A stretch of 64,000 nt of DNA, from assembly GCF_044324785.1 (NCBI RefSeq), contig NZ_CP172127.1. One strand, written 5' to 3'. Positions 59,899 to 60,612 of this stretch are shown one piece after another; positions within the stretch are counted from its first letter, which is position 1; each line of letters starts with the position of its first letter. Both the position numbers and the translations under genes were made by a program. The DNA is from Escherichia coli (GTDB lineage Bacteria > Pseudomonadota > Gammaproteobacteria > Enterobacterales > Enterobacteriaceae). Under the pieces are notes generated by a model. It searched no databases. It saw only the letters and a program-made list of their open reading frames with translations, and had not been told where the DNA came from.

Positions 59899-60612
59899 AT
59901 GAATGTTAATTACCTGAATGATTCAGATCTGGATTTCCTCCAGCATTGCAGTGAGGAACAGTTGGCAAATTTCGCCCGATTGCTCACCCATAATGAAAAA
60001 GGCAAAACTCGCCTCTCCAGCGTACTGATGCGCAACGAACTGTTTAAATCGATGGAAGGACATCCCGAGCAACATCGCCGCAACTGGCAGCTGATTGCCG
60101 GAGAATTACAACATTTTGGTGGCGATAGTATCGCCAACAAACTGCGTGGACACGGTAAATTGTATCGGGCGATTTTGCTCGATGTTTCAAAACGATTGAA
60201 GCTGAAAGCCGACAAAGAGATGTCTACGTTTGAAATTGAGCAACAGTTACTGGAACAATTTCTGCGTAATACCTGGAAGAAAATGGACGAGGAACATAAG
60301 CAGGAGTTTCTGCACGCGGTCGATGCCAGGGTGAATGAGCTGGAAGAGCTGCTGCCGCTGCTGATGAAAGACAAATTATTGGCAAAAGGCGTGTCGCATT
60401 TGCTTTCCAGCCAATTGACCCGCATTTTACGCACCCACGCAGCAATGAGCGTACTTGGGCATGGTTTGCTTCGCGGCGCGGGGCTGGGAGGCCCTGTAGG
60501 CGCGGCACTAAATGGGGTTAAAGCGGTCAGCGGCAGCGCCTATCGCGTGACGATTCCAGCCGTACTGCAAATCGCCTGCCTGCGCCGGATGGTTAGTGCC
60601 ACTCAGGTCTGA
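59899..60612 (+). CDS. yaaW: UPF0174 protein YaaW
   Basis: 237-aa ORF MNVNYLNDSDLDFLQHCSEEQLANFARLL; conserved position. Confidence 0.9.
   Translation: MNVNYLNDSDLDFLQHCSEEQLANFARLLTHNEKGKTRLSSVLMRNELFKSMEGHPEQHRRNWQLIAGELQHFGGDSIANKLRGHGKLYRAILLDVSKRLKLKADKEMSTFEIEQQLLEQFLRNTWKKMDEEHKQEFLHAVDARVNELEELLPLLMKDKLLAKGVSHLLSSQLTRILRTHAAMSVLGHGLLRGAGLGGPVGAALNGVKAVSGSAYRVTIPAVLQIACLRRMVSATQV

Follow-up and report, generated by a model that had tools for sequence, protein, structure and literature searches.

The open reading frame antisense to yaaW in Escherichia coli is probably a shadow of its mother gene

The pairing of yaaW with the antisense gene htgA/mbiA is among the most cited supposed births of a bacterial gene by overprinting, and a genuinely coding antisense frame would make it a classic example of a new gene arising de novo within an older one. 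The same arrangement is present in a stretch of 64,000 nucleotides from E. coli (contig NZ_CP172127.1), referred to below as the window, and it raises the question of whether the antisense frame is held open by selection for a protein, or whether it is open merely as a by-product of the gene on the opposite strand. The analysis of the frame, of its natural variation and of its substitution patterns favors the second answer: the antisense ORF is probably a "shadow" of yaaW, and no selection acts to maintain a protein encoded by it.

The antisense frame and its identity with K-12 mbiA

The mother gene, yaaW, was located by the ORF listing and by direct reading at positions 59899-60612 of the plus strand, where it encodes 237 amino acids and stands in the gene order yaaI-yaaW-satP. 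Its GC content of 50.6% is ordinary, as the earlier note had described it. The encoded protein contains the Pfam domains DUF3944 (PF13099, 1.2e-14) and Ubiq_cyt_C_chap (PF03981, 7.7e-16), matches the NCBIfam equivalog NF007593 over its full length with a score of 520 bits (cut-off 395), and carries the curated K-12 name of putative enzyme-specific chaperone YaaW. The window protein is identical to that of K-12 (100% protein identity), with all 13 nucleotide differences between the two genes being synonymous, and the full 237 residues are present in 34 of the 34 E. coli alleles read.

On the minus strand, an ORF at 59910-60434 begins with a GTG at 60434, spans 174 codons, ends in a TAA at 59910-59912 and is fully contained within yaaW. 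Both the ORF listing and direct reading agree with the earlier note in this respect, although its figure of 174 codons holds for the GTG start, whereas the annotated forms begin three codons downstream. The first in-frame ATG, at 60425, is the start annotated for K-12 mbiA, and the ORF counted from it (59913-60425) encodes 171 amino acids, which is the length of the O157 and UTI89 entries. From stop to stop, the frame is open for 209 codons (59913-60539), bounded by a TAG at 60540-60542 and the TAA at 59910-59912. Direct reading found no ATG, GTG or TTG in the upstream part of this stretch, which is nevertheless where the older annotations of 199-206 amino acids in the MbiA cluster begin. The two genes share their third codon positions, an arrangement termed the 123/213 phase by Delaye (PMC2268670).

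The likeness to htgA/mbiA that had been proposed from the sequence alone is borne out by the position, frame and ATG, all of which match K-12 mbiA (b0012, YP_009518733.1). The K-12 gene, at 10830-11315 of NC_000913, corresponds to positions 59940-60425 of the window; the antisense ORF is the known and disputed htgA/mbiA locus, which has already been described. While the ATG at 60425 is shared with the 161-residue K-12 gene, the stop is not. Where the window has TGG (Trp) as the antisense codon at 59940-59942, K-12 has TGA, and the window ORF is therefore 10 codons longer at its C-terminus, with 171 rather than 161 amino acids. This difference is synonymous in yaaW, where it exchanges the Leu14 codons CTC and CTT. 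Besides the difference in length, the window protein departs from K-12 MbiA by I/M and N/S substitutions.

Among deposited proteins, the window sequence is 98% identical, over 100% of the query, to homologue P0001, whose 90% cluster contains both K-12 MbiA and the O157:H7 UniProt entry Q8XA70 (MbiA, modifier of biofilm), the latter being one of the 171-residue entries in that cluster. The exact window protein is absent from a collection of 15 billion proteins, and the local 33-mer haplotype of the window is found in 36 of 5,426 complete E. coli genomes. PGAP left the antisense ORF unannotated in each of 17 inspected RefSeq records of E. coli.

Truncated alleles and distribution among relatives

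The allele sample was widened with 16 further RefSeq alleles, 10 contigs encoding an identical YaaW and other genome loci. Across the resulting 34 E. coli alleles (25 haplotypes), the antisense ORF encodes 171 amino acids in 17, 161 in 10, 145 in six and 105 in one. These lengths are set by three minus-strand stop sites. The stop allele at 59940-59942, which yields the 161-residue form, occurs in 1,501 of the 5,426 complete E. coli genomes (27.7%). At 59988-59990, a change that is synonymous for Thr30 of yaaW (ACC to ACT) shortens the ORF to 145 residues, and this allele occurs in 248 of the complete genomes (4.6%); at 60108-60110, the 105-residue form arises from a Leu70 to Phe change in yaaW (TTA to TTT) and is carried by 154 (2.8%), Nissle 1917 being an example. 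Both of the latter sites are open in the window. The non-stop local haplotypes at 59940-59942 account for 2,162, 36 and 1,695 genomes, and four local haplotypes together cover 5,394 of the 5,424 genomes that have the locus. At least one in three sequenced E. coli genomes carries a shortened antisense ORF. Every truncation observed retains at least 105 N-terminal residues, and an ATG stands at the antisense start in all E. coli alleles read. When metagenomes were scanned with a degenerate pattern for yaaW, only 8 loci were recovered.

Among the relatives compared, Escherichia alone has a long open antisense frame, of 183-209 codons; in Citrobacter, Salmonella, Kluyvera and Pseudescherichia, stops split the frame into runs of 59-102 codons. 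The breaks arise through a junction at residue Tyr73 of YaaW, together with synonymous codons ending in T. In the window, the codons for His72-Phe73 (CAT TTT, 60112-60117, plus strand) leave the antisense frame open, as Phe73 does in Escherichia, whereas Tyr73 (CAT TAY) brings an unavoidable antisense stop in Citrobacter, Salmonella, Pseudescherichia, UBA7338 and 'Escherichia sp. ESNIH1'. Phe73 is present in every Escherichia sequence read; it is also present in Kluyvera, so that the change at position 73 may have run in either direction, and not necessarily from Tyr to Phe in the ancestor of Escherichia. The stop state at 59940-59942 is found in Citrobacter, Salmonella and other outgroups as well, and the stop at 59988-59990 is shared by some E. 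coli strains and E. albertii.

Origin of the open frame and patterns of substitution

The antisense frame is open because of the amino acid sequence of YaaW and the codons chosen to encode it. As the third positions are shared, an antisense stop can arise only where a Tyr codon follows a yaaW codon with T or C in third position, or where a His or Gln codon follows one with T there. The gene contains 26 junctions able to form such a stop: 13 are protected, 10 are a single synonymous step away from a stop, and three are the actual stops that bound the frame. The protected junctions are stop-proof unless YaaW itself changes, since the preceding Glu, Gln, Lys, Trp or TTR-encoded Leu has no synonymous codon ending in T. 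The sole mid-gene junction that forces a stop is His72-Tyr73 of Salmonella and Citrobacter, in place of which Escherichia has His72-Phe73; the other sites at risk toggle between open and stop states through changes that are synonymous in yaaW. Furthermore, the antisense ATG is itself forced by the Arg-Ile codons of YaaW, and is found also where the frame is broken.

With the YaaW protein held fixed, resampling of synonymous codons produced a run of 209 or more open codons in this frame with P = 0.048, and permutation of yaaW's own codons did so with P = 0.099. Such openness is unusual for a single gene but unremarkable over approximately 4,000 genes, and neither P value survives a genome-wide correction for multiplicity. 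Within the window, yaaW alone among 38 genes has more than half of its length open in the antisense frame that shares third positions, yet longer antisense ORFs occur in the same 64 kb, opposite dnaK (678 amino acids), an ileS-like gene (302 amino acids) and two other genes (215 and 218 amino acids). The shadow ORF of dnaK/hsp70 resembles the yaaW case in that the frame is opened by the amino acids and codons that make up the sense gene, and in its shadow-like translation. The two differ in phase: the dnaK antisense frame is codon-aligned and 100% open in the window, its stops requiring the rare codons TTA, CTA or TCA, whereas stops opposite yaaW hinge on Tyr, His or Gln junctions. Passive protection of the third-position-sharing frame through selection on the mother gene has been described previously (PMC4182739).

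Whether the antisense protein is nonetheless under selection was addressed with a conditional, OLGenie-like test, in which the antisense effect of yaaW-synonymous changes is compared with the neutral expectation; the consensus was taken as the ancestor, sites were treated as independent, and 25 to 30 haplotypes were used. Within E. coli, 10 of 33 yaaW-synonymous changes were antisense-nonsynonymous, against 8.2 expected under neutrality, and antisense omega values of 0.5 or below and of 0.2 or below were rejected (P = 0.016 and P = 3e-5, respectively). The genus as a whole gave the same picture, with 35 of 114 changes against the 28.4 expected without constraint, and with omega of 0.5 or below rejected at P = 1e-5. 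Nor are antisense stops avoided: two stop-creating synonymous changes were observed, against 0.61 expected for E. coli and 2.1 for the genus, such that stops arise at the neutral rate. The antisense amino acid sequence is thus shown to drift neutrally wherever yaaW permits it to change. The reciprocal test had a different outcome, with only six of 85 antisense-synonymous changes being yaaW-nonsynonymous, against 17.4 expected (P = 2e-4), and yaaW is clearly under purifying selection even when conditioned on antisense-synonymous changes. The earlier note had named substitution patterns with constraint on the yaaW frame alone as what would speak against the antisense gene; this is the pattern that was found, and it argues against a selected protein.

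It has been argued that yaaW evolves more slowly under the htgA overlap (Delaye 2008, PMC2268670). An early genus-level count did contain fewer synonymous changes in the overlap, but that deficit was not concentrated in antisense-nonsynonymous changes and was not significant once complete sequences were used; synonymous change is not detectably slower in the overlapped than in the non-overlapped part of yaaW, either for transitions (P = 0.40) or for transversions (P = 0.13). Singletons make up six of 10 antisense-nonsynonymous variants against six of 23 other variants, a weak excess with P = 0.11.

Expression signals and alternative readings

The predicted antisense protein has the properties of a shadow translation. 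It is composed of 23% Ser, 9.4% Cys and 9.4% Arg, and its composition log-odds is -0.32, against 0.07 to 0.30 for the real proteins of the window and -0.32 to -0.04 for shadow translations; its codon log-odds, -0.41, likewise lies within or beyond the shadow range. No Pfam or NCBIfam family matches it. Searches returned four matches in 5.8 billion proteins and six in 1.84 billion representatives, most of them short and of partial coverage. Two of the matches, P0002 and P0004, were rejected as cross-species homologues, their identity being only intermittent, and P0003 was rejected as an independent relative, being a chimera with an unrelated domain. An AlphaFold2 model predicted from the single sequence, which makes it a weak test, has a mean pLDDT of 28 and is devoid of secondary structure.

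The Shine-Dalgarno-like duplex at the ATG at 60425 has an energy of -3.9 kcal/mol, a value equalled by 22% of random positions, and a simple and crude scan of the minus strand upstream revealed no sigma-70-like promoter, with match counts near the shuffled expectation. No Rfam family covers the region, and the literature searched yielded no Ribo-seq or proteomic statement on mbiA. Delaye 2008 (PMC2268670), however, refers to the original 1993 work on htgA, which included cloning, Northern blots, labelling of the protein and mapping of the promoter; an intragenic htgA/yaaW promoter was reported active in vitro (PMC2731890); and according to ExcludonFinder, transcription of yaaW and mbiA overlaps in no fewer than 50% of 58 RNA-seq samples from MG1655 (PMC12288877). 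Later papers from the same field attribute an mbiA phenotype to Fellner 2014 (FEMS Microbiol Lett 350:57). In the light of this literature, it is quite possible that the minus strand is transcribed, and it might also undergo pervasive low-level translation.

These reports raise the possibility that MbiA is a real, young de novo protein that was overprinted in Escherichia, that starts at the ATG at 60425, and that consists of an N-terminal core of 105-145 residues and a dispensable C-terminus, with a role in biofilm formation or metabolism and under selection too weak or too recent to be detected. The expression and phenotype claims and the UniProt name point in this direction, as do the confinement of the long open frame to Escherichia, the ATG in every E. 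coli allele read, the retention of at least 105 N-terminal residues by all natural truncations, the position of the open run in the 5-10% tail of the null distribution, and the weak singleton excess; a very young de novo gene could, moreover, show an omega near 1. Yet antisense-nonsynonymous changes are not depleted, with omega of 0.5 or below rejected for the genus, and three nonsense alleles, the commonest of them in more than a quarter of complete genomes, have arisen at the neutral rate. The ATG is dictated by YaaW and persists where the frame is broken, the composition is indistinguishable from that of a shadow translation, confident structure and homologues are lacking, the ribosome-binding site is unremarkable, and the simple scan revealed no sigma-70-like promoter upstream on the minus strand. 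A selected MbiA of this kind is therefore considered unlikely. The more specific proposal, that the N-terminal 105-145 residues are a new Escherichia-specific MbiA with low-level translation, an effect on biofilm or metabolism and near-neutral evolution, is judged less likely still; if it were true, the forms of 171, 161, 145 and 105 amino acids would represent a gene in the process of being born, with its C-terminus truncated in natural steps.

Alternatively, the antisense RNA rather than any protein might be what matters, lowering or coupling the expression of yaaW (and yaaI) through transcriptional interference or cleavage of the RNA duplex by RNase III, much as an excludon would, with the ORF being incidental. 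The transcription overlap reported by ExcludonFinder, the promoter active in vitro and the Northern signals cited by Delaye would all be accommodated, and neutral evolution of the antisense frame with free variation in ORF length fits such a role. The ExcludonFinder call, however, relies on the annotation of mbiA in MG1655, the region has neither an Rfam family nor a sigma-70-like promoter in the simple upstream scan, and synonymous sites in the overlap show no extra conservation. Pervasive antisense transcription is, in addition, widespread in E. coli, where most of it is generally regarded as noise, and a functional antisense RNA is likewise held to be improbable. The original reading of htgA, as reflected in its historical name 'positive regulator of sigma-32 promoters' and in keeping with a locus that adjoins dnaK, tied the gene to heat shock. 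Delaye 2008 (PMC2268670) reports later work in which sigma-32 induction was not found and the start codon was revised, and htgA was at one time dropped from the annotation over conflicting data (PMC3454372). The gene has since been renamed mbiA ('modifier of biofilm'), and the K-12 record, which still annotates it as a CDS, now labels it "uncharacterized protein". With neither a DNA-binding nor any other domain found in Pfam or NCBIfam, and with the evolutionary evidence against a selected protein applying here too, the sigma-32 reading has largely been refuted in the literature already and is given almost no credence.

The interpretation of the ORF as a shadow of yaaW also sets it apart from the systems with which it has been grouped. 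In the literature, mbiA/yaaW is named alongside the antisense overlapping genes of EHEC described by the Neuhaus/Scherer group (nog1/citC, laoB, ano, asa and pop/ompA), which are likewise embedded antisense, taxonomically restricted and claimed as products of overprinting. For those genes, RNA-seq and Ribo-seq signals and phenotypes are reported, whereas the mbiA ORF shows no constraint in the sequence tests and is frequently truncated in nature. The controversial status that the earlier note had given to such embedded antisense genes is supported by these results. No new biology follows from them, and their main use lies in a caution for annotation: since long antisense ORFs that share third positions are passively protected by the mother gene, length alone is not evidence of a gene.

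The antisense ORF and its K-12 counterpart

The end of the window corresponds to the E. coli dnaK-yaaI-yaaW-satP-mog region in the orientation opposite to that of K-12, with yaaI (59427-59873), yaaW (59899-60612) and satP (60761-61327) on the plus strand, and dnaK (57178-59094) and mog (61362-61952) on the minus strand. The earlier note had placed a 174-codon minus-strand ORF at 59910-60434 within yaaW, and the coordinates, the GTG start and the TAA stop bear this out exactly. The first in-frame ATG, at 60425, leaves 171 codons, and from stop to stop the frame comprises 209 open codons, from 60539 down to 59913. 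The third codon positions of yaaW (50.6% GC) and of the antisense ORF coincide on both strands, a phase designated 123/213 in Delaye 2008 (PMC2268670) and the "-2 frame" in PMC4182739.

The description of this ORF as htgA/mbiA-like was also right. In K-12 MG1655, the curated CDS mbiA (b0012, 10830-11315, 161 amino acids) lies within yaaW (10643-11356) and maps onto window positions 59940-60425. Furthermore, the antisense ORF is 98% identical to a deposited homologue whose 90% cluster, made up of 14 entries of 161 to 206 annotated amino acids and two short partial ones, also contains K-12 MbiA and the 171-amino-acid UniProt entry from O157 named MbiA ("modifier of biofilm"). By position and by cluster membership, the ORF is therefore the already known, disputed htgA/mbiA locus. 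The yaaW genes of the window and K-12 differ at 13 nucleotides, all 13 of them synonymous, which leaves the two YaaW proteins 100% identical. Through one such difference, the TGA stop of K-12 mbiA is TGG in the window, which makes the window ORF 10 codons longer. The window haplotype at 59924-59956 (C at 59937, 59940 and 59949) is rare, being carried by only 36 of the 5,426 complete E. coli genomes. Over the whole region, the best match in the complete-genome set reaches 98.9%; an identical yaaW is present in GCA_020354765.2, an assembly outside the complete-genome set.

PGAP annotated the antisense ORF in none of the 17 RefSeq E. coli records inspected. yaaW itself is labelled "msyB, acidic protein MsyB" by RefSeq/PGAP in 17 of 17 E. 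coli records, via NCBIfam NF007593 (520 bits). The true K-12 MsyB (b1051, 124 amino acids) does not resemble YaaW (BLASTP E = 2.6), and the model that it fits is another one, NF008544; NF007593 looks like a misnamed model whose name has spread to thousands of genomes.

Sequence basis of the open frame

An antisense stop in this phase requires either NNY|TAY, a pyrimidine-ending codon before tyrosine, or NNT|CAN, a T-ending codon before histidine or glutamine. With 3 Tyr, 11 His and 12 Gln residues, yaaW has 26 junctions at which such a stop is possible. Thirteen are protected, since the first of the two residues (Glu, Gln, Lys, Trp or TTR-encoded Leu) has no synonymous T-ending codon, three are the actual stops that bound the antisense frame, and ten lie one synonymous step away from a stop. 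E. coli, other Escherichia clades and E. albertii have 183-209 codons of this frame free of stops; in Citrobacter, Salmonella, Kluyvera and Pseudescherichia, stops divide it into stretches of 59-102 codons. His72-Tyr73 (CAT|TAY), which creates an unavoidable antisense stop, is common to Citrobacter, Salmonella, Pseudescherichia and their allies; residue 73 is Phe in Escherichia and likewise in Kluyvera. Most of the other stops in outgroups arise where an at-risk junction has a synonymous T-ending codon, and a few result from residue changes in YaaW. At Leu70 (60106-60108), every Escherichia sequence read carries the rare codon TTA, over about 11-14% DNA divergence, and other genera have CTT, CTG, CTA or Phe TTT. 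With TTA in this position, an antisense stop at the junction is out of reach of any single synonymous change.

Chance expectation was assessed with the YaaW protein held fixed and synonymous codons either redrawn from the codon usage of the window (2,000 trials) or permuted among yaaW's own. The antisense frame was open over 209 or more consecutive codons in 4.8% of the redrawn trials and in 9.9% with permuted codons. Among the 38 window genes, yaaW alone is open over more than half its length in the third-position-sharing frame, and the codon-aligned antisense frame is 100% open in dnaK and in one other gene, at 39666-40616 on the minus strand. Given these chance values and the long antisense ORFs elsewhere in the window, the ORF is unusual for a single gene and unremarkable across a genome of about 4,000 genes. 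The ORF opposite dnaK (57100-59136, plus strand; 678 amino acids, or 619 from the first ATG) spans that entire gene; it is the well-known hsp70 shadow ORF and greatly exceeds the yaaW antisense ORF in length. Three other antisense ORFs, at 43541-44449 (plus strand, 302 amino acids from ATG) and at 8541-9188 and 28001-28657 (minus strand; 215 and 218 amino acids from ATG, respectively), lie inside an ileS-like gene and two other long genes.

Substitution patterns and length variation

An ordinary antisense dN/dS merely mirrors yaaW because the third positions coincide, as is conceded in a passage of Delaye 2008 (PMC2268670) and discussed in a part of PMC4182739. In a conditional test, those yaaW-synonymous changes that alter the antisense protein were instead counted against a neutral expectation, computed over every possible yaaW-synonymous mutation and separately for transitions and transversions; a consensus serves as the ancestor, sites are taken as independent, and 25 to 30 haplotypes contribute. 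In E. coli, 10 of 33 yaaW-synonymous changes were antisense-nonsynonymous, against 8.2 expected under neutrality, and an antisense omega of ≤0.5 (P = 0.016) or ≤0.2 (P = 3e-5) was rejected. Across Escherichia the count was 35 of 114 against 28.4, with omega ≤0.5 again rejected (P = 1e-5). As an internal positive control in the genus, only 6 of 85 antisense-synonymous changes were yaaW-nonsynonymous, against 17.4 expected (P = 2e-4). With no antisense depletion and a depleted yaaW control, only the yaaW frame thus shows detectable constraint, which is the sequence half of the outcome that the earlier note had set beforehand as refuting a coding role. Stop-creating synonymous changes were not avoided (2 observed, against 0.6 expected for E. 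coli and 2.1 for the genus), nor was the synonymous change rate lower in the overlapped part than in the remainder of yaaW. Singletons were in non-significant excess among antisense-nonsynonymous variants (P = 0.11).

Length was compared among 34 E. coli alleles (25 haplotypes), taken from 17 RefSeq genomes picked evenly along the similarity ranking of 5,424 matches, K-12, 5 metagenome contigs, 10 assemblies with identical YaaW, and the window. From the conserved ATG, the antisense ORF encodes 171 amino acids in 17 alleles, 161 in 10, 145 in 6 and 105 in one, and YaaW is full-length (237 amino acids) in all 34. The stop alleles were then counted in 5,426 complete genomes by variant-centred 33-mers, for which the 28-base megablast word must include the variant. 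The K-12-type stop (161 amino acids) occurs in 1,501 genomes (27.7%), the Thr30 ACT stop (145) in 248 (4.6%) and the Leu70 to Phe stop (105), which includes Nissle 1917, in 154 (2.8%). The non-stop haplotypes at the K-12-type site occur in 2,162, 36 and 1,695 genomes; the count is validated by the fact that these three and the K-12-type stop cover 5,394 of the 5,424 locus-bearing genomes. The three stops never occur together in the 34 alleles read, and if this exclusivity holds genome-wide, at least 35% of genomes have an antisense ORF shorter than that of the window. Several outgroups likewise have the K-12-type stop, which suggests that the 171-amino-acid form may be derived.

A few sources carry a damaged yaaW. 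In the complete genome NZ_CP180600.1 (H30), an IS1 element cuts yaaW into DUF3944 and Ubiq_cyt_C_chap fragments. Metagenome contig L025 has a 23-bp deletion at gene positions 351-374 that could be an assembly error. The yaaW of NZ_JAATUR010000005.1 ("Escherichia coli strain SCPM-O-B-8794") is 88.7% identical to that of the window in DNA and 98% in protein, near the 88.9% DNA identity of Escherichia sp. E1V33; a cryptic Escherichia clade, not E. coli proper, is the probable source of this record.

Expression, predicted protein and competing readings

The literature does indicate minus-strand transcription across yaaW. An intragenic htgA/yaaW promoter is described as active in vitro in a passage of PMC2731890, Northern blots and promoter mapping for htgA are cited in Delaye 2008 (PMC2268670), and an entry in PMC12288877 places yaaW-mbiA among the overlapping-transcription pairs in at least 50% of 58 MG1655 RNA-seq data sets. 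In the window, a simple scan found no sigma-70-like promoter upstream of the antisense ORF on the minus strand, and SD-like pairing ahead of the ATG at 60425 is average. Past the ORF's stop, the minus strand has a promoter-like site at 59909-59880 (TTAACA, 18-nt spacer, TATATT; 10/12) and, at 59878-59861, overlapping the 3' end of yaaI, a weak hairpin that resembles a terminator and has a T-rich tail; these matches at 59861-59909 may mean nothing, because regional match counts are close to what shuffled sequence gives. The locus matches no Rfam family. Elsewhere in the window, the sok antitoxin RNA (CssrC; 55553-55705, plus strand, 119 bits), the ES003 sRNA (37290-37342, minus strand, 87 bits) and tpke11 (57090-57167, minus strand, 70 bits, between dnaK and the next downstream gene) all reach the gathering score. 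That the transcript acts as a regulatory antisense RNA appears quite unlikely.

Under a second alternative, the ORF would encode a recently arisen, almost neutrally evolving protein whose functional core is N-terminal. A mbiA phenotype is attributed to Fellner et al. 2014 in statements of later citing papers. The predicted protein contains 23.4% Ser, 9.4% Cys, 9.4% Arg and 1.2% Gly, and it lacks His. Its composition scores -0.32 on a log-odds scale for which the other 37 window genes and their same-frame antisense translations served as training data, where real proteins range from 0.07 to 0.30 and shadows from -0.32 to -0.04; its codon score is -0.41, as opposed to +0.37 for yaaW. It matches no Pfam or NCBIfam model, and outside its own cluster, searches of 5.8 billion proteins and of 1.84 billion representatives yielded nothing beyond short matches of partial coverage, at least one of them a chimera. 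Single-sequence AlphaFold2, a weak test for an orphan, gave a pLDDT of 28 and no secondary structure. We consider a protein of this kind unlikely. The original claim of a heat-shock regulator is very unlikely: in passages of Delaye 2008 (PMC2268670), the sigma-32 induction of htgA is given as unconfirmed, its start codon as revised, and a nonsense mutation is noted in one strain, and htgA is mentioned in PMC3454372 as having at one time been dropped from annotation over conflicting data.

The reading that we favor, and regard as probable, is that the ORF is a shadow ORF, an open antisense frame due to the residues and codons of the sense gene and not selected as a protein. The frame would be kept open by the YaaW sequence, with its length and sequence free to vary, on a strand that is probably transcribed.
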